NCBI RefSeq assembly: GCF_000027125.1
Contig: NC_017626.1
DNA: 64,000 nucleotides
Direction: 5' to 3' (one strand)
From: Escherichia coli 042
GTDB taxonomy: Bacteria > Pseudomonadota > Gammaproteobacteria > Enterobacterales > Enterobacteriaceae
Shown: positions 4,435-29,715 of the stretch, one piece after another
Numbering within the stretch: the stretch's first letter is position 1
How the letters are laid out: each line of letters opens with the position of its first letter
Translations under genes and position numbers: made by a program
The notes under the pieces: generated by a model
Databases searched by the model: none
Seen by the model: only the letters and a program-made list of their open reading frames with translations
Told to the model about the DNA's origin: nothing

Positions 4435-4655
4435 CACCATGACTCCGCCTTTACAGGTAAACCATCACGACCGAGGAAGACTTTAATCATGCAGTCAGTA
4501 ATGCATGTTTTTGTGGTCAGGTTACGAATATAAAGCTTTCGCTTTTTAATATTGTTTGCCGAGGCAATATATGTCCGGCCGTTATGAAGAACATAATCAC
4601 CAGGAGTCACACACTGACGAGGTATTTCATCAGTTCCGAAGTGATGAGCAATCAT
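4434..4655 (-). CDS. kilR: Cell-division inhibitor KilR (73 aa)
   Basis: ORF translation [21 protein letters not shown]...; Rac synteny. Confidence 0.8.
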
Positions 4656-5085
4656 AATTATCTCCATTTTCACAAATGAACTTTGTTGATGCGGTGCCTG
4701 GTGCCTCCAGGTGACGTTAACCAGTTAACAATTAACGCCGGATAATCCACCCATAACACTGATGCTTTTAACTGTTCCGCGTGCGCTTAGCCGCATTCAC
4801 CGCATCACAAAATTCACTTTAAAAAGGGCGGACATCAGCCGAACTTCAAGAAAAAACTGATGCCGCCAAGACTACACACAGCAATGTCGTTATTTACAAC
4901 CGGAGGCGCACTCCCACCATTTAAATTTAACAGACAAGACCGACTCTTTATGGATATCGGAAATGCGCCTTCGTGTTGCGCCCAGTTTTATTTCACCACC
5001 TCCGGGCTTCGGTGGTCTCGGCTATACCCCTACAGCGAGAGCTTGTGTTAACATTTCAATACCCTTACAGTTGAGAGTTATTGAT

Positions 5086-11880: not shown

Positions 11881-12480
11881 ATGGCGCATATACAACTGGT
11901 CAAACAAACTTCTTCTGGTTTACTTCTCCCGGCGACGCCGGAGAGTTGCGATTTTCTGCATCAAATCAAAATAGGTGAGTGGATACACGCAGACTTTAAG
12001 CGTGTGCGTAACTACGCATTCCACAAGCGTTTTTTCAAACTCCTGCAACTGGGATTCGATTACTGGACTCCGGTCGGTGGGGCGATCACACCTCGCGAAC
12101 GAGAAATGGTGTTCGGCTTCGTTGATTACCTGTGTGAATCAGTAGGCAGGGAACATACGCCAGCTCTGAGTGATGCCGCGGAACAATATCTGAATACCGT
12201 TGCGACACGCAGAACCCGGGATATGGCATTGCTCAAATCATTTGACGCTTTCCGCGAGTGGGTAACCATTCAGGCCGGATTTTACACCGAGCATTTTTAT
12301 CCTGATGGTAGTCGTGGGCGTCGGGCGAAATCCATCGCGTTTGCGAATATGGACGAAACCGAGTTTCAGCAGGTTTATAAATCTGTACTGAATGTGCTGT
12401 GGAACTGGATTCTGTTCCGTAAATTTTCCTCTCCGGAACAAGTCGAAAATGTGGCCGCGCAGCTACTGGAGTTTGCGTAA
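11881..12480 (+). CDS. Phage nin-region protein of unknown function, 199 aa
   Basis: ORF immediately upstream of and abutting the YbcO-like gene. Confidence 0.55.
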   Translation: MAHIQLVKQTSSGLLLPATPESCDFLHQIKIGEWIHADFKRVRNYAFHKRFFKLLQLGFDYWTPVGGAITPREREMVFGFVDYLCESVGREHTPALSDAAEQYLNTVATRRTRDMALLKSFDAFREWVTIQAGFYTEHFYPDGSRGRRAKSIAFANMDETEFQQVYKSVLNVLWNWILFRKFSSPEQVENVAAQLLEFA

Positions 12481-12770
12481 TGGTGGATTTACGTAAAGCG
12501 GCGCGGGGCCAGATGTGCCAGGTCAGAATCCCTGGCTACTGCAATCACAATCCCGAAACTTCTGTGCTGGCGCATTACAGGTTGGCAGGGACGTGCGGAA
12601 CAGCGACAAAACCACACGATATGCAGGCAGCGATTGCCTGTAACTCATGCCACGATTTAATCGACGGGCGGGTAAAAACCAGCGATTACACCAAAGAAGA
12701 ATTACGCCTGATGCATGCAGAAGGTGTTTTTCGCACGCAAGAAATCTGGAGAAAGGAAGGTTATTTATGA
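12480..12770 (+). CDS. YbcO-like DUF1364 phage protein (putative nuclease), 96 aa
   Basis: Conserved Cys pattern (CQVRIPGYCN...CNSCHD) as in DLP12 YbcO. Confidence 0.7.
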   Translation: MVDLRKAARGQMCQVRIPGYCNHNPETSVLAHYRLAGTCGTATKPHDMQAAIACNSCHDLIDGRVKTSDYTKEELRLMHAEGVFRTQEIWRKEGYL

Positions 12771-13303
12771 TTTACCCAACAAATACAGGCAAAAGCGGGG
12801 AACACCTTCGTCTCACCACGCTGGAAAGTGTCTGGATTCAGGGAAAACTGCGCATGTGGGGGCGCTGGTCGTATATTGGCGGCGGTAAGACGGGGAATAT
12901 GTTTAACCAGTTGCTGGCGTCAAAAAAATTGACGAAAACAGCCATCAATGAAGCCCTGCGCAGAATGAAAAAAGCGGGAATAGAGAAAGCTGAGCTGGAA
13001 GCGTTTTTGCGAGAGATGATCAACGGCAAGCAAAAGAGCTGGCTGGCGCATTGTACTGATGCAGAGGCACTAAAAATTGATAGTGTTATAGGTGAAGTTC
13101 TGGCGGATCATCCAGGACTACTAAATGTCCTGAGTCAGCGTTATGTGGGGCGAGGGATGAGTAAGAGAAGGATGGCCGAGTTATTAAACGAACAGTACCC
13201 AGAGTGGGCGTTGATTACATGCCGACGTCGTGTTGATCAGTGGTTGCGTGTTGCTGAGTTCATTTTGTATTCACCTATGAGAGAAGCGTTCGATTATGCT
13301 TAA
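12767..13303 (+). CDS. Late-gene antiterminator Q-like protein, 178 aa
   Basis: Position (last gene before tRNAs and lysis cassette), overlap with upstream gene, RBS GAAAGGAAGG; family assignment from memory only. Confidence 0.55.
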   Translation: MIYPTNTGKSGEHLRLTTLESVWIQGKLRMWGRWSYIGGGKTGNMFNQLLASKKLTKTAINEALRRMKKAGIEKAELEAFLREMINGKQKSWLAHCTDAEALKIDSVIGEVLADHPGLLNVLSQRYVGRGMSKRRMAELLNEQYPEWALITCRRRVDQWLRVAEFILYSPMREAFDYA

Positions 13304-13399
13304 AAAATCATTGCAAAATGAGCCACAAACTGCTTCAATTTCGGTACGCTTCGCATAGCTGTATCGCGAGGCAAATTAAGCGCATGAACTTTAATACAA

Positions 13400-13426
13400 C
13401 CCGCCATTGAGCGGGTTTTGTTGTTT
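13400..13426 (+). terminator. Candidate tR'-type intrinsic terminator
   Basis: cccgc-cattga-gcggg stem-loop followed by ttttgttgttt. Confidence 0.4.
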
Positions 13427-13558
13427 CTGTGGCGTGATATCAGAAACGACATTTAATAATCGCCTTCAAAATAAATTTGTTTATACATTGTCATGTATAT
13501 TTTAAGTGAAAGTGAATTATTCACATAAAATAAAAACACATAAATAAATTTACATAAC

Positions 13559-13590
13559 TTGACGCAAAGTGTTGTTGCGATTGGAATATT
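13559..13590 (+). promoter_or_regulatory. Candidate sigma-70 promoter for the tRNA pair
   Basis: TTGACG then 17-nt spacer then TGGAAT; AT-rich UP-like tract upstream. Confidence 0.25.
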
Positions 13591-13665
13591 AAATCGTATC
13601 ATCGAAAACGGTTCTGAGGGGGAACTCTTCTTTGCTCGGTGATATCGCTCCCCTGAAGAACCAAT

Positions 13666-13741
<76 letters not shown>

Positions 13742-13744
13742 TAT

Positions 13745-13819
<75 letters not shown>

Positions 13820-14121
13820 GCATTTGAAACAAGCCTTATTGTATTGCGGCACTGGCGTATTTTTTTATTACGTGGGAGCAGGTTGTTTTGAAAAAGCATT
13901 CTGTTCTCTGGCTATGATTTGAGGCCGGGTGTAGCCTCAGTGCTGATTTTTTACGGCAGCAGAATGGTGCATTATCGGTGGAGATTTTGTATTTCCTGGC
14001 AGGGTCGGTGATGCATCATTCTGGTGTTGTAAAAGCACCGCAGAGGCGTTCCTCAGGGCGAGGGTGGTTTAAAGAGTCGGTTTAGCGGGAAACCACAGTA
14101 TCCATACGGCACGGAATACTT

Positions 14122-14148
14122 CGGGAGGCACCCGACGCCTCGGTTTTA
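14122..14148 (+). terminator. Terminator-like hairpin
   Basis: gaggc-acccgac-gcctc then ggtttta. Confidence 0.3.
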
Positions 14149-14182
14149 TAACAATTAAATAATTCATCCCTTAATTGACCAA

Positions 14183-14207
14183 CCGCCGTATCAGGCGGTT
14201 TTTTTTA
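14183..14207 (+). terminator. Intrinsic terminator
   Basis: ccgcc-gtatca-ggcgg followed by T9. Confidence 0.5.
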
Positions 14208-14595
14208 TTCCTTTCTCAGGACAAAAAAATACACGAGCATCCAGGAATACTCGTGGGACAACGTCCTTTGGATAGCAATTTGCGAGAGGGTGAAAAGTAG
14301 CGCGGTCGTCGGATTAAGACCGCGGGACAAAGTCCATGAAGAAGAATAAGTATCGGTCTCCTTCCGGAGACGAGTTGATATTACTAAGCTTTAAAAATGG
14401 TTTAAATCCTCAGATCAACCTTAATTTCAGATAAGGTTTATTTCATTTTCTCCGCGTCACATCCGACGCACATCACATCAGATAACACCACACAAAAGGC
14501 ATCTGCGGGTGTCTTTGACGGGGTGTTTTTTACGGGCCGCTGGTGGCCATTTTTTGTTTCCATTACACAGCGCCCGCATCTGCGAGGTGGGGGTT

Positions 14596-14811
14596 ATGAA
14601 ATCCATGGATAAGTTAACAACGGGTGTCGCCTATGGCACCTCCGCAGGCAGTGCTGGCTACTGGTTTTTACAGCTGCTCGATAAAGTCACGCCCTCACAG
14701 TGGGCAGCAATAGGTGTGCTGGGTAGCTTGGTATTTGGCCTGCTGACGTACCTGACAAACCTTTATTTCAAGATTAAAGAAGATAAGCGCAAGGCTGCGA
14801 GAGGTGAATAA
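14596..14811 (+). CDS. Pinholin, phage 21 S21-type, dual-start (MKSM), 71 aa
   Basis: [26 protein letters not shown]...; RBS GAGGTGGGGG; two start Mets three codons apart. Confidence 0.85.
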
Positions 14812-15308
14812 TGCCTCCATCATTACGAAAAGCCGTTGCTGCTGCTATTGGTGGCGGAGCAATTGCTATAGCATCAGTGTTAATCACTGGCCCAAGTGGT
14901 AACGATGGTCTGGAAGGTGTCAGCTACATACCATACAAAGATATTGTTGGTGTATGGACTGTATGTCACGGGCATACAGGAAAAGACATCATGCTCGGTA
15001 AAACGTATACCAAAGCAGAATGCAAAGCCCTCCTGAATAAAGACCTTGCCACGGTCGCCAGACAAATTAACCCGTACATAAAAGTTGATATACCGGAAAC
15101 AACGCGCGGCGCTCTTTACTCGTTCGTTTACAACGTGGGCGCTGGCAATTTCAGAACATCGACGCTTCTTCGCAAAATAAACCAGGGCGATATCAAAGGC
15201 GCATGTGATCAGCTACGTCGCTGGACATATGCTGGCGGTAAGCAATGGAAAGGTCTCATGACTCGTCGTGAGATTGAGCGTGAAATCTGTTTGTGGGGTC
15301 AGCAATGA
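14811..15308 (+). CDS. SAR endolysin (R21-type lysozyme), 165 aa
   Basis: N-terminal Gly/Ala-rich signal-anchor-release segment [18 protein letters not shown]; lysozyme body. Confidence 0.85.
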
Positions 15309-15769
15309 ACAGAGTAACCGCGATTATCTCCGCTCTGGTTATCTGCATCATCGTCTGCCTGTCATGGGCTGTTAATCATTACCGTGATAATGCCATTACC
15401 TACAAAGCGCAACGCGATAATGTGAAGGAAAAACTCAACCAGGCGACCGCAATCATTACTGACATGCAGATACGCCAGCGTGATGTTGCTGCACTCGATG
15501 CAAAATACCTGAAGGAGTTAGCTGATGCGAAAGCTGAAAATGATGCTCTGCGTGATGATGTTGCCGCTGGTCGTCGTCGGTTGCACATCAAAGCAGTCTG
15601 TCCGTCCGTGCGTGAAGCCACCATCGCCTCCAGCGTGGATAATGCAGTCTCCCCCAGACTGGCAGACACCGCTGAACGGGATTATTTCACCCTCCGGGAA
15701 CGACTGGTAATGATGCAGGCCCAACTTGAAGGTGCTCAGCAATACATAACCGAACAGTGTTTAAAGTAA
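15305..15769 (+). CDS. Spanin inner-membrane subunit Rz
   Basis: N-terminal TM, coiled-coil body, follows endolysin. Confidence 0.8.
15525..15710 (+). CDS. Spanin outer-membrane lipoprotein Rz1 (embedded in Rz, +1 frame)
   Basis: Lipobox LVVVGC, Pro-rich mature part, fully nested in Rz. Confidence 0.75.
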
Positions 15770-15906
15770 AATCTTAACTACAATATGATTCATTTTGATG
15801 ATTGTTTCATAAGGAACAGTGAAGTAAGATCTAAGATGAGTTAAATTTTATACAGTATAATCATAATGTTGCAGCAAGGTGGTTATAATTGAAAGAATAT
15901 TTAGAT

Positions 15907-17364
15907 ATGAATACATCTCATGTAAGAGTTGTTACTCATATGTGTGGGTTCCTGGTTTGGCTCTATAGTCTTTCAATGTTGCCACCAATGGTTGTAGCAT
16001 TGTTTTATAAAGAAAAAAGCCTGTTCGTTTTCTTTATAACTTTCGTTATATTTTTTTGCATTGGTGGCGGAGCGTGGTATACAACTAAGAAATCTGGTAT
16101 TCAATTACGTACCCGTGATGGGTTTATTATAATTGTAATGTTTTGGATTTTGTTTTCTGTTATTAGTGCATTCCCTTTATGGATTGACTCAGAACTTAAT
16201 TTAACGTTTATTGATGCTCTATTTGAAGGGGTTTCTGGAATAACAACAACAGGAGCAACTGTAATTGATGATGTTAGTTCATTACCTCGGGCATATTTGT
16301 ACTATCGGTCACAGTTAAATTTTATAGGTGGCTTAGGAGTTATTGTTCTGGCGGTTGCTGTATTGCCATTATTGGGTATTGGTGGTGCAAAGCTTTATCA
16401 GTCAGAAATGCCAGGGCCATTTAAGGATGACAAACTTACTCCCCGCCTGGCCGATACGTCACGGACACTTTGGATAACTTATTCTTTATTAGGTATTGCT
16501 TGTATTGTCTGTTATAGACTTGCAGGAATGCCTTTGTTTGATGCTATTTGTCACGGGATATCCACAGTTTCGCTTGGTGGTTTCTCAACTCATAGCGAGA
16601 GTATCGGATATTTTAATAACTATTTGGTTGAGCTGGTGGCTGGTTCTTTTTCCCTGCTATCGGCTTTCAACTTCACCCTTTGGTATATTGTTATTAGCAG
16701 GAAAACGTTAAAACCTTTAATCAGAGATATTGAACTTCGTTTCTTTCTGTTAATAGCCTTAGGGGTGATCATTGTTACCTCTTTCCAGGTCTGGCATATA
16801 GGTATGTATGACTTGCCTGGAAGTTTTATTCATTCGTTTTTTCTTGCCAGCTCCATGCTCACTGATAATGGTTTAGCTACGCAGGATTACGCAAACTGGC
16901 CCACGCACACGATAGTGTTTTTGCTGTTGTCAAGTTTCTTTGGGGGATGTATAGGTTCAACTTGTGGTGGAATTAAGTCACTTCGATTTCTTATACTTTT
17001 CAAACAAAGCAAACACGAGATAAACCAGCTTTCTCATCCCAGAGCGTTGTTGAGTGTAAATGTAGGAGGGAAGATAGTTACAGATCGTGTAATGAGGTCT
17101 GTATGGAGTTTCTTTTTTCTTTATACTCTCTTCACGGTGTTTTTTATACTGGTGTTAAATGGTATGGGATATGATTTTCTTACATCATTTGCAACAGTGG
17201 CTGCATGTATTAATAATATGGGATTAGGTTTTGGGGCTACTGCATCGTCATTCGGAGTGCTTAATGACATTGCAAAATATTTAATGTGCATAGCTATGAT
17301 TCTTGGTCGCCTTGAAATTTATCCTGTTATTATATTGTTTTCAGGTTTTTTTTGGCGCTCCTAA
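15907..17364 (+). CDS. trkG: Potassium uptake protein TrkG (485 aa)
   Basis: Polytopic membrane protein matching TrkG/TrkH; AT-rich relative to flanks. Confidence 0.85.
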   Translation: MNTSHVRVVTHMCGFLVWLYSLSMLPPMVVALFYKEKSLFVFFITFVIFFCIGGGAWYTTKKSGIQLRTRDGFIIIVMFWILFSVISAFPLWIDSELNLTFIDALFEGVSGITTTGATVIDDVSSLPRAYLYYRSQLNFIGGLGVIVLAVAVLPLLGIGGAKLYQSEMPGPFKDDKLTPRLADTSRTLWITYSLLGIACIVCYRLAGMPLFDAICHGISTVSLGGFSTHSESIGYFNNYLVELVAGSFSLLSAFNFTLWYIVISRKTLKPLIRDIELRFFLLIALGVIIVTSFQVWHIGMYDLPGSFIHSFFLASSMLTDNGLATQDYANWPTHTIVFLLLSSFFGGCIGSTCGGIKSLRFLILFKQSKHEINQLSHPRALLSVNVGGKIVTDRVMRSVWSFFFLYTLFTVFFILVLNGMGYDFLTSFATVAACINNMGLGFGATASSFGVLNDIAKYLMCIAMILGRLEIYPVIILFSGFFWRS

Positions 17365-27446: not shown

Positions 27447-27827
27447 ATGGCAAAGGCATGGGATATCGAACCGTCAATATTTGCCGGGATGATTGAGGAA
27501 GATGTGGGGCTGAAAATTCGCTACATCGCTATTCAGATTCTTACTGCTATCGATATTGCTGCTCCGGTTGATACCGGGCGTTTCAGAAATAACAACATGG
27601 TGTCGTTACAGCATCCCGATTTTGGTATATCTGATAACGTGGATCCGAACGGTACGATTGCGGTTCAGCGTGGGATCGGGGTTATTTCGAAAGCTGCAAA
27701 TTACGGAATTATTTATATCCAGAATAACCTTCCTTATGCAGAGGCTCTTGAAAACGGTCATTCACAACAAGCGCCAACTGGCGTGTATGCCAACGCTTTT
27801 CATGGTGTTTTACAGGCTTACAAATGA
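27447..27827 (+). CDS. Head-tail joining / tail completion protein (putative)
   Basis: Gene order. Confidence 0.5.
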   Translation: MAKAWDIEPSIFAGMIEEDVGLKIRYIAIQILTAIDIAAPVDTGRFRNNNMVSLQHPDFGISDNVDPNGTIAVQRGIGVISKAANYGIIYIQNNLPYAEALENGHSQQAPTGVYANAFHGVLQAYK

Positions 27828-28216
27828 CGTTTACTGAAATCAGAAATACGGTCATTTCCAGAATGACGGCACAGACGGTTATTAATGGAAAAGACGTATT
27901 GTATCCGAACGGGCCAACGTTCGATCCTTCCGGTAAGTTAATCTGGGCGCGGTTAAGTAATATTCCCGGGCAGGCTGGAGTTAATGAAATTGGTGCGGGG
28001 CCGGTTGTTTATCGCACGGGGATAATCATTATTCAGTTATTTGTCCCCGCAGGTTCTGGTTCAAAACTCATTACTGAGACAGCCGATAAATTGCGGGAAC
28101 TGTTTGAGTTTCAGGATGACGACCGTCTCAGTTACCAGGCTGTTTCCTCAATAACCGTTGGCGAAAAGAATGGCTGGTTCCAGCTTAATCTTCAAATTCC
28201 ATATCGCGCGCTCTAG
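27824..28216 (+). CDS. Tail completion/terminator protein (putative)
   Basis: Gene order immediately before major tail protein. Confidence 0.5.
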   Translation: MTFTEIRNTVISRMTAQTVINGKDVLYPNGPTFDPSGKLIWARLSNIPGQAGVNEIGAGPVVYRTGIIIIQLFVPAGSGSKLITETADKLRELFEFQDDDRLSYQAVSSITVGEKNGWFQLNLQIPYRAL

Positions 28217-28242
28217 CGCAATTAATGACATAGGAGGCTCCT

Positions 28243-29205
28243 GTGAGTTCAGGTGCAAAGGTTATCTCGGCATTTATCCGGGAGACAGTTGCAGGCACCA
28301 CACCAGCAAGTGGTGACTGGAGTTTATTAAAACGCACAAGCTGGGGAGTAAAACCCACCCAGAATAAAGGCGAAAATAATGAGATTGGTGGCTCCCGGAT
28401 GGCTCAGGGGGCGACGCCTGGCACTGTGGATGTTGGCGGTGATGTTGGTACCAAATTTCGCTGGGGTCAACATGATGATTTTCTTGCATCCTGTTTCGGC
28501 GCGGAATGGTCAGGTGATTCTCTGACAATGGGGAATGAGCGAATAACATTTTCTCTGGCGACCTATGCGTCCGATGTCGGAATTGCCTCTGTTGTCAGAG
28601 GAGCGCAGGTTGGCTCATGGAAAATGCAGATCCCTAACGACGGCGATATTACGGCGACCGTAACCTTTGCCGGGCTGGACTGGGAATCAAAGGCCGATGA
28701 TACGAATTTTATCAAAGGCGAACCTGTGGATAGTGCAGGAAAGCTACGTTATTCGTTTAAGGAGGTTTCAGCAGTAAGCCTGAATGGTGTTGCCGGAGGT
28801 AACGGTTTTTGTATCGACAGTTTTGATATTCAGTTCGATAACAAACTCCAGACACAGCGTTGTATCGGGACTGGCTCGCCTTATGCAGGAGCAAATATTC
28901 CGACTACTTTTACACCGTCCGGTACGGTGACGCTTTCATGGTCTAAAGCCGCGTGGGAAATCTGGAGTAAAACACTGACTGGAGAAACAGTTCCGTTCAG
29001 CTTCACGCTTTCGAATGGAGAGGGGGCATACACTTTCAGTTTCCCGAAGGTTCAGATGTCAGGTGAATGGCCTGATGGGGGTAATACCGACATTATCCAG
29101 GTTCAATTGAGCATTACCGCAGCAGATGAAGCACCTACGATAACCAGAAAAAAAGCCTCCCCGGCTGCCGTGATCGCAAAAGCCAGTGCTGAGGCGATTA
29201 GTTGA
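28243..29205 (+). CDS. Major tail (tube) protein, 320 aa
   Basis: Position before G/GT chaperone; size. Confidence 0.65.
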   Translation: MSSGAKVISAFIRETVAGTTPASGDWSLLKRTSWGVKPTQNKGENNEIGGSRMAQGATPGTVDVGGDVGTKFRWGQHDDFLASCFGAEWSGDSLTMGNERITFSLATYASDVGIASVVRGAQVGSWKMQIPNDGDITATVTFAGLDWESKADDTNFIKGEPVDSAGKLRYSFKEVSAVSLNGVAGGNGFCIDSFDIQFDNKLQTQRCIGTGSPYAGANIPTTFTPSGTVTLSWSKAAWEIWSKTLTGETVPFSFTLSNGEGAYTFSFPKVQMSGEWPDGGNTDIIQVQLSITAADEAPTITRKKASPAAVIAKASAEAIS

Positions 29206-29253
29206 TTTTCCGTTATTCCCCCTGTGGTACTGCACTACAGGGGGGCGCATTGA

Positions 29254-29715
29254 ATGAGGTTATGGATGTTTATTCTTAATCAGAAAATTATCATCGGTGG
29301 TGAACGCTGGTTTACCCCAATGAAGGACTTAAAACCTGTAGACGGGTTAAAACTGTTGGTGGCAAGCAGCGATAACGATCAGTATCGCTCCCGTAATGCA
29401 TTAATCCGTCGCCACATTGAGAAAATGGATGCCAGTTTGCACGTCGGAACGAAGGAGTTTGATATTGCAAAGGTTTCCGAGGTGGATTCTGTTGATGATT
29501 TACTCATTGATAATGCTGCTCGTTATCTGCTGAAAGACTGGAAAGGGGTTGGTGAACTGGTTGATGGTGTTGAGGTTGCACTGGAATATACGCCAGAACG
29601 AGGGATCGCGCTGCTTAAGCAGAATCCGGAGTTGTACTGGCAGATCCTTGCAGAAGCAGCCAGCATCGCCCAGGGTAAAGAGCAGCAGAAGCAGGATACG
29701 ATAAAAAAGCCATAG
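29254..29715 (+). CDS. Tail assembly chaperone (G-like), 153 aa
   Basis: RBS AGGGGGG; ends just after slippery heptamer. Confidence 0.7.
   Translation: MRLWMFILNQKIIIGGERWFTPMKDLKPVDGLKLLVASSDNDQYRSRNALIRRHIEKMDASLHVGTKEFDIAKVSEVDSVDDLLIDNAARYLLKDWKGVGELVDGVEVALEYTPERGIALLKQNPELYWQILAEAASIAQGKEQQKQDTIKKP

Follow-up and report, generated by a model that had tools for sequence, protein, structure and literature searches.

The 64,000-nt stretch of Escherichia coli 042 analyzed here (contig NC_017626.1; hereafter, the window) holds a lambdoid prophage at the Rac site, and the gene order of the window places the segment of interest in the late region of this element. The genes run DUF1367, DUF1364, a Q-like gene (DUF1133), tRNA-Thr(UGU), tRNA-Gly(UCC), a gap, the S21-type holin gene (essD), rrrD, Rz, and trkG. 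The gap, at positions 13820-14595, extends to the holin start codon (ATG at 14596) and is the subject of this report. A first-pass annotation had described it as lacking open reading frames (ORFs) and as carrying tandem terminator-like hairpins, an architecture taken to fit a short, structured RNA close to the late promoter or a small RNA (sRNA). We describe three modules in the gap: module A on the plus strand, module B on the minus strand, and module C, the holin leader. Modules A and B are probably a real, conserved pair of non-coding RNA modules, a variant of the known prophage sRNA dyad and STnc100 kind. The window is 100% identical in E. coli K56-43-un and 99.9% identical in APEC O1; the interval itself is held by 424 of 5426 complete E. 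coli genomes (about 8%), 210 of which carry nearly all of it.

An ORF-poor and structured gap

The longest complete ORF within 13820-14595 is 41 amino acids long, which bears out the claim that no ORF of at least 60 amino acids is present. In 1000 dinucleotide shuffles of the gap, the longest ORF averaged 85 amino acids; 11.7% of the shuffles had no ORF of at least 60 amino acids, and 0.2% were as ORF-poor as the native sequence. The frame of roughly 18 codons that had been pointed out does exist, but it is actually a 32-codon ORF (14336-14434), which 1-nt insertions or deletions break in 5 of 32 variants. Single-nucleotide insertions or deletions also occur in the first large hairpin of module A (domain 1, below) in three of the loci compared, which are designated by L numbers (L008, L036, and L054). 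A coding function was therefore rejected on the grounds of ORF depletion and of the indels in both places. Hypothetical ORFs annotated across the gap in some records were not conserved either.

Hairpins were found where they had been placed, at 14125-14141 followed by GGUUUU, at 14181-14200 followed by eight U residues (the strongest), at 14301-14324, and at 14356-14371. A consensus scan counted seven terminator-like sites in 13200-14800, compared with 1.5 ± 1.5 in shuffled sequences, and one of the terminator-like hairpins (14255-14232, followed by U7) lies on the minus strand. The folding z-scores were -4.5 for 13820-14209 on the plus strand, -3.8 for 14221-14372 on the minus strand, and -3.7 for 14440-14600 on the plus strand, and none of the shuffles folded as well. 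Together with the covariation reported below, the ORF depletion and the folding support the view that the interval is non-coding and encodes structured RNA. Rfam searches of 12000-16000 and, with more permissive settings, of the gap alone returned only tRNAs, weak look-alikes of microRNA precursors, and a sub-threshold match to STnc100; the microRNA look-alikes reflect a long hairpin.

Module A, a plus-strand structure behind the phage tRNAs

Three exact-word scans of IMG/VR yielded about 150 related prophage loci. The conserved structure of module A was assessed in an alignment (A4) of 27 diverged sequences that runs from the end of tRNA-Gly to an intrinsic terminator, a distance of 371-396 nt in these variants. 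The consensus fold comprises 82 pairs in 12 helices, and 97.9% of the cells are paired, compared with 39-50% when the partners are slid by 1-3 columns. Both sides have changed at 19 pairs (97 cells), and none of 500 shuffles reached these values. Many of the commonest pairs are G.U, which on the other strand would be C.A mismatches, so the structure belongs to the plus strand. The plus strand also folds better (-94.4 kcal/mol, z = -4.6) than the minus strand (-71.9 kcal/mol, z = -2.9).

The structure occupies 13848-14206, follows tRNA-Gly directly, and consists of three domains, a linker, and the terminator. Domain 0 (D0; 13848-13944) begins 28 nt past the CCA end of the tRNA and is formed by a closing helix, GGCACUG/CAGUGCU, around two hairpins. 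Its helices (1-4 of A4) contain 18 pairs, seven of them changed on both sides, with 91-100% of cells paired, and the domain was also recovered by a single-sequence minimum-energy fold. Domain 1 (D1; 13948-14035) is a hairpin of about 35 bp with many G.U pairs, an apical GGAGA/UUUCC stem, and a UGGCAGGG bulge. Its 30 pairs are 99% paired; 14 of them vary on one side only and yet stay paired, mostly by G.U wobble, and 5 vary on both sides. Domain 2 (D2; 14043-14141) is an STnc100-like multibranch structure in which a closing helix, GAGGCG/CGCCUC, encloses three inner hairpins, with an invariant UCGGG-AGGCA-CCCGA hairpin at 14121-14135. An AU-rich linker (14142-14180) with the lowest identity across variants (0.58-0.67) leads to the terminator (14181-14206), which was detected by a terminator scan and has the form AACCGCC-loop-GGCGGUU followed by U8. 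The stem and the U-tract are kept in all variants.

These assignments alter the earlier description in two respects. Of the proposed tandem terminators, the one at 14181-14206 stands as a strong terminator, whereas the segment 14122-14148 belongs to D2. A local hairpin at 14125-14141 competes with the long-range helix 14043-14048 : 14136-14141, and the pair C14047/G14137 is replaced by U/A in 11-13 sequences. This covariation favors the long-range closing helix over the local hairpin, and the supposed first terminator is thus part of D2. In addition, the RNA had been described as short, but from tRNA-Gly to the terminator the conserved structure measures about 360-390 nt.

The tRNAs, tRNA-Thr(UGU) at 13666-13741 and tRNA-Gly(UCC) at 13745-13819, were identified on the plus strand by ARAGORN and by Rfam (73.8 and 65.6 bits). 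Both share 98.7% identity with the host thrU and glyT genes; the match to the host thrU-tyrU-glyT cluster falls into two segments, as though tyrU had been lost. Upstream of them, the promoter scan detected a σ70-like promoter at 13575-13602 (TTGCGA-16-TATCAT, plus strand) preceded by an AT-rich tract. Divergent variants of the tRNA array have an equivalent promoter at the same place (TTGAAA-16-TAATAT and TTGCAA-17-TATTAT), and differential RNA sequencing of an Stx2 phage has mapped a separate, tRNA-specific transcription start and promoter (PMC7547250). The leader between the promoter and tRNA-Thr (13603-13665) may form a long-range helix, GGUUCUGAGGGG / CCCCUGAAGAACC, and in another array type (GGTTCC...GGAACC) the helix ends show covariation.

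Between tRNA-Gly and D1, neither a conserved terminator nor a promoter was found. The simplest reading is that the promoter, the tRNAs, D0-D2, and the terminator form one transcription unit. A hairpin at 13919-13940 (13921-13938) was considered as a terminator of the tRNA operon; it is not kept as such (in phage 683R6, for instance, it is broken) and is better explained as part of D0.

Module A is linked to tRNA arrays as a unit. The arrays that precede it (loci L007-L091) are Thr-Gly, Arg-Gly, Met-Lys-Thr-Gly, Met-Lys-Lys-Gly, Met-Arg-Lys-Gly, and Met-Phe-Thr-Gly, and all end in tRNA-Gly(UCC). In the loci anchored on D1, the upstream part of the module lies about 160 nt past tRNA-Gly(UCC) wherever the flank suffices (except in L072), while the antiterminators upstream of the arrays and the holins downstream vary. 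Most of the tRNAs in these arrays read with a modified U34.

A comparable position is occupied by 3'ETS-leuZ, the external transcribed spacer that forms the trailer of the glyW-cysT-leuZ tRNA operon and acts as an sRNA sponge. Both RNAs lie between the last tRNA and the intrinsic terminator of the operon, with no conserved terminator and no promoter passing the scan in between for module A, and the module A trailer, too, would end in a U-tail of the Hfq-binding kind; if co-transcribed with the tRNAs, it would be released by tRNA processing. The two differ in that 3'ETS-leuZ is about 50 nt long and encoded in the core genome, whereas the module A trailer measures about 390 nt, is highly structured, and is phage-borne.

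The Q-like gene itself (12767-13303, plus strand) is annotated in RefSeq as encoding a DUF1133 family protein and matches PHROG phrog_753, "anti-termination protein Q-like," at E = 4e-78. The terminator scan detected an intrinsic-terminator-like hairpin (13398-13417) with a U-rich tail (to 13424) on the plus strand 95 nt past this gene. It shows 85% identity with a hairpin in the PR' leader of Sakai prophage Sp5 (L006 1870-1896) and is a candidate for the end of a short PR' transcript. An element of about 45 nt that precedes it (about 13325-13372) is also kept in L142-type loci. The segment 13310-13424, with the 45-nt element CTGCTTCAATTTCGGTACGCTTCGCATAGCTGTATCGCGAGGC and the terminator conserved in the unrelated loci of the L142 group, is a candidate for PR', the pause site, and the short transcript of a DUF1133-type Q. 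The StxS/lambda 6S RNA is a terminated, non-coding by-product of the antitermination-controlled late operon that possibly doubles as an sRNA (PMC7547250). It starts at PR' directly after Q, and its equivalent here would be about 13310-13424. The gap, by comparison, lies 0.5-1.3 kb downstream of the Q-like gene and beyond the separate tRNA promoter. The notion that its RNA is proximal to the late promoter is accordingly not sustained: the terminator resembling one in the Sp5 PR' leader is much nearer the Q-like gene, and the tRNAs have a conserved promoter-like site of their own.

The same observations bear on the proposal that the interval is nothing but tandem terminators and spacer, either an equivalent of tR' with a short by-product RNA, as the first-pass annotation would have it, or the remnant of a decayed moron. 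Serial terminator-like hairpins do stand before the holin gene, and stx or other morons occupy this position in other phages. Nevertheless, a terminator already lies closer to the Q-like gene, one of the terminators in the gap is on the opposite strand, the ORF depletion exceeds that of 99.8% of shuffles, and substitutions preserve structure across 360 nt, well outside the terminators, a pattern that neither a spacer nor a pseudogene would produce. We consider this proposal very improbable.

The remark that toxin genes are found at this position is apt, as in Sp5 stx2AB sits between the tRNA array and a copy of STnc100. STnc100 (EcOnc27/sRNA103 of Stx2 phages) and PasD are Hfq-bound sRNAs, confirmed by Northern blotting, that occupy the same prophage position (PMC4104026, PMC7873438, PMC8550237), and with these as the closest relatives, an sRNA was a reasonable suggestion. 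A covariance search of the interval with Rfam STnc100 (RF02076) gave a full-length alignment with 14016-14208 at 17.5 bits (E = 0.23), below the cut-off of 47, and other variant groups scored 20-38 bits; Sp5 EcOnc27 matches the same model at 207.7 bits. In the reverse direction, a model (R1) built from 32 D2 sequences of this family only, with E-values that are rough, found canonical STnc100 full-length in Sp4 (E = 1.2e-7), prophage PP5 of enteropathogenic E. coli (EPEC) (3.4e-7), and Sp5 (1.1e-4). R1 did not find the Sp3/PasD type, which a 2026 preprint relates to STnc100 by structure (10.64898/2026.05.13.724894).

Given the reciprocal matches of R1 and the full-length Rfam alignment, D2 with its terminator is a divergent member of the STnc100 family, and D2 is distantly homologous to STnc100. 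The core architecture is shared: a long-range closing helix, inner hairpins, and a last inner hairpin of the form CYGGG-AGGCA-CCCRG that abuts the 3' strand of the closing helix. In both, an AU-rich linker and an intrinsic terminator (here 14181-14206) follow. The counterpart of the linker in a related sRNA contains a predicted PasD binding motif (supplement of PMC8550237); the equivalent here is 14142-14180. The placement is also the same: both lie in the late operon, on its plus strand, with the tRNAs or moron on one side and the lysis genes on the other; here the Q-like gene is upstream and the holin gene (14596) downstream. The Sp4 copy, like module A, directly follows a tRNA array, whereas in Sp5 stx2AB intervenes. 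There are differences as well. D0 and the 35-bp D1 precede the fold in module A, and canonical STnc100 (e.g., Sp4) has neither; module A shows no separate promoter or terminator between the fold and the tRNAs; and no similarity at the BLAST level extends beyond a 13-nt motif. BLAST comparisons with the Sakai Sp3, Sp4, and Sp5 loci and the EPEC PasA, PasC, and PasD loci found only the GGGAGGCACCCG motif of 13-27 nt. With IpeX and the K-12 DLP12 region upstream of essD, only 22 nt matched, at the ribosome-binding site of the holin gene.

STnc100-like folds were also observed next to DicF. In the early-left operon of the Rac prophage, upstream of a DUF1391 gene, the segment 4641-4880 of the window contains a DicF-like RNA on the minus strand (4826-4880; RF00039, 41.1 bits against a cut-off of 48) directly followed by an STnc100-like fold (4641-4824, minus strand; RF02076 at 42.6 bits, where the cut-off is 47, and E = 1e-7). 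In K-12 Qin, the spacer between dicF and dicB (L177 1133-1342; NC_000913.3 1649432-1649641) gave a full-length STnc100 match of 34.4 bits (E = 8e-6) that includes CACCUGGAGGCACCAGGCAC. No terminator follows the fold in Qin, and the fold thus also occurs inside an mRNA leader.

In a more distant group (L131, L137, L139, L144, L151, and L155), the same D2 fold is preceded by extra hairpins and by another, longer hairpin, whose 20-bp stem, ACUGCAUUCAGAUGGCGUAC, has an insert of about 70 nt; no tRNA was detected near L131. A scan of species-representative genomes with a 17-mer, TTCGGGAGGCACCCGAC, gave 15 matches in unrelated GC-rich taxa where about 35 would be expected by chance in 298 Gb, and with fewer matches than chance predicts, the scan is uninformative on host range.

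Module B and the convergent arrangement before the holin gene

We assign the hairpins at 14290-14375 to a converging RNA on the minus strand and not to the plus-strand transcript. Module B (14223-14372, minus strand) is a candidate sRNA with five hairpins and a terminator (hairpin 14255-14232 followed by U7), and with a 5' end that would lie near 14371 its length would be about 150 nt. In an alignment (A3) of 32 variants of 14208-14450, 26 pairs were 99% paired, compared with 32-49% in slid controls, and 47 cells were changed on both sides, a value that none of 500 shuffles reached. The commonest U.G pairs belong to the minus strand, which has a folding z-score of -3.8, compared with -1.9 for the plus strand. 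Two alleles of the 3' half exist, and both keep the minus-strand terminator hairpin and its U-run. The unpaired stretch of module B, CGAUACUUAUUCUUCUUCAU, is rich in C and U and is the complement of the small frame that had been noticed on the plus strand, atgaagaagaataag ("atgaagaag"). A weak promoter-like site at 14378-14406 on the minus strand (TTTAAA-17-TAATAT, with TAGTAT in most variants) was read from the sequence and from its conservation in A3.

Module B is a separable part of the gap. About 35% of the variants, including the second copy in phage SerU-LTIIb, are without 14210-14440 while both flanks are kept, and module B is missing from about a third of the loci that carry module A.

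Sakai prophages have been reported to carry convergent pairs of Hfq-bound sRNAs at their moron site, 3' of PR' (PMC4104026). According to a review, at least eight Sakai prophages have such sRNA "dyads" after PR' and before the lysis genes, and their purpose is unclear (PMC7873438). Dyads of this type are on record for Shiga-toxin phages and for EHEC and EPEC prophages. The arrangement in the gap corresponds to the convergent dyad of Tree et al. (2014): the terminators end at 14206 (plus strand) and 14223 (minus strand), and covariation supports each of the two RNAs. In the known dyads (AsxR/EcOnc27, AgvB/EcOnc06, EcOnc05/08, and PasA or PasC next to the holin gene), two RNA genes converge between PR' and the holin gene, as modules A and B do with terminators about 18-20 nt apart. 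The minus-strand partner of the dyads has a terminator hairpin and an unpaired, possibly target-pairing region, and module B is alike. The partner itself, on the other hand, is a different RNA. Module B, with about 150 nt and five hairpins, is larger than AsxR and AgvB (51-60 nt); it lacks their conserved 3' region of about 42 nt (AGUAUCUCAUGC..GCCCGAACCCAYUCGGGC), and the sequences differ on inspection. No match to either family (RF02703, RF02702) was obtained in the module B region at E values up to 10, whereas Sp5 scores 88 bits. Comparison with the PasA and PasC loci of E2348/69 (L157 and L158; blastn, word size 7), where these genes adjoin the holin gene on the minus strand, gave nothing beyond chance, and position alone is in common.

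Module C (14440-14595, plus strand) is the leader of the S21-type holin gene. It contains the ribosome-binding site and a terminator-like hairpin (14535-14548 followed by U6) detected by the terminator scan, has a folding z-score of -3.7, and is kept with or without module B. The module also occurs in phiP27, cdtI, mEp460, and Ayreon, the annotation of which calls it "terminator." Elsewhere in the prophage, queH (epoxyqueuosine reductase) and two toxin genes, one of the hok/gef type and one of the doc family, lie in the segment 9422-11373, immediately upstream of the nin-like genes, and trkG (15889-17364) is a moron after Rz.

Possible roles of the RNA pair

On balance, we favor, with some reservation, the reading that the gap is a "moron site" without cargo, in the late region of a Rac-type lambdoid element, and that it carries a convergent pair of non-coding RNA genes. 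The tRNA operon would be transcribed from its own promoter near 13575-13602 through tRNA-Thr, tRNA-Gly, and a trailer of about 390 nt (D0, D1, D2, and the linker) to the terminator at 14181-14206. With the terminator at 14535-14555 as a second barrier, it would prevent transcription that starts at the promoter from entering the lysis genes in a lysogen, whereas RNA polymerase would pass it once modified by the Q-like protein. After excision of the tRNAs, the whole trailer or a 3' portion released by processing may persist as an Hfq-type sRNA or a sponge, as is the case for STnc100/EcOnc27, PasD, and the tRNA trailer 3'ETS-leuZ. Module B would be transcribed from near 14371 to its terminator (14255-14223) as an RNA of about 150 nt antisense to the leader of the late mRNA. 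Its C/U-rich stretch could pair in trans with purine-rich start regions; in cis, the RNA could bind late transcripts that have read through and so contribute to silencing of the holin gene. The analysis shows the structure, the strand, and the terminator of both modules, the linkage of module A to tRNA arrays, the modular occurrence of module B, and the distant homology of D2 to STnc100, whereas the transcription starts, processing, Hfq binding, targets, and read-through by Q-modified polymerase are inferred.

Several points weigh against this reading. No convincing promoter for module A was found at 13820-13950 by scan or by eye, and the promoter-like site of module B is weak, with 8 of 12 consensus positions, below the scan threshold. 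The compensatory changes in module A come from few allele groups, and most of those in module B separate two allele groups, so that few independent events are represented. The anchors used to collect the loci were exact matches taken from the element itself, which inflates the apparent conservation at 13980-14004 and 14120-14136. The STnc100 score of D2 fails the Rfam gathering cut-off by a wide margin, and the O157:H7 and K-12-type genomes checked, from strains with published Hfq cross-linking (Hfq-CLIP), ligation plus sequencing of interacting RNAs (RIL-seq), and Term-seq data, match only the tRNAs. Finally, D2 occurs without tRNAs or D1 in some relatives (the L142 and L131 groups), and STnc100-like folds behind dicF lie within mRNAs, with no terminator. 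Given these last two observations, a role in cis fits D2 as well as a role in trans.

A role in cis would mean that the plus-strand structure is mainly a processing or stabilizing element and not a trans-acting sRNA. When an upstream stable RNA is excised (here the tRNAs, in the early-left operon DicF), a new 5' end results, and D1, a plausible substrate of RNase III, could together with the STnc100 fold define and protect that end or insulate the two parts of the transcript from one another. The placement of STnc100-like folds directly 3' of DicF both in the window and in the terminator-free spacer of K-12 Qin is in line with this, as are the pairing of DicF with such a fold in L131 as well, the nearly perfect duplex of about 35 bp in D1, and the start of D0 so close to the tRNA end. 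The late-operon copies, however, always have a strong terminator after the fold, so that in a lysogen no downstream mRNA would be there for the fold to protect. Moreover, the relatives build up as discrete sRNAs that are bound to Hfq and have partners in RIL-seq (PMC8550237), and canonical STnc100 loci such as Sp4 are without D1. We regard a mainly cis-acting structure as unlikely, though by no means negligible. The broader proposition that the STnc100 core fold is a reusable cis module placed after excised stable RNAs (tRNAs in late operons, DicF in early-left operons), and not primarily a trans-acting sRNA, appears to us doubtful and somewhat less likely still.

The occurrence of copies downstream of both the early-left and the late promoters also recalls nut and put sites. 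The fold might accordingly be an RNA antiterminator of the put/nut type that carries RNA polymerase through downstream terminators into the lysis genes, and the annotated early region of this prophage has no recognized N homologue. The put element is, however, 70 nt long with two stem-loops (PMC9378689), as opposed to a multibranch fold of about 100 nt. In HK022 27500-38000, which holds putL and putR, the best R1 match reached 7.4 bits (E = 0.74, filters off), and no Rfam STnc100 match was found there. A conserved strong terminator directly follows the fold, related sRNAs end at that terminator in vivo (PMC4104026), and the prophage has a Q-like antiterminator gene. An antiterminator function of the fold is therefore highly unlikely.

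If the convergent pair is read as we favor, an interval to which annotations assign nothing, or else spurious small ORFs, carries two structured RNA modules. The STnc100/PasD family extends well past the reach of the Rfam model and is physically tied to phage tRNA operons, and module B is a new candidate minus-strand partner for the little-understood prophage dyads. Should the fold instead be a cis module, it would control the rest of its transcript, for instance by processing, by protecting the 5' end, or by coupling to termination or antitermination. The 390-nt three-domain RNA would then be the most elaborate version of a "cassette" that is linked to tRNAs and passes from prophage to prophage as a single unit. 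In K-12, the STnc100-like fold of the dicF-dicB spacer offers an experimentally easy system in which the function of the fold may be addressed.

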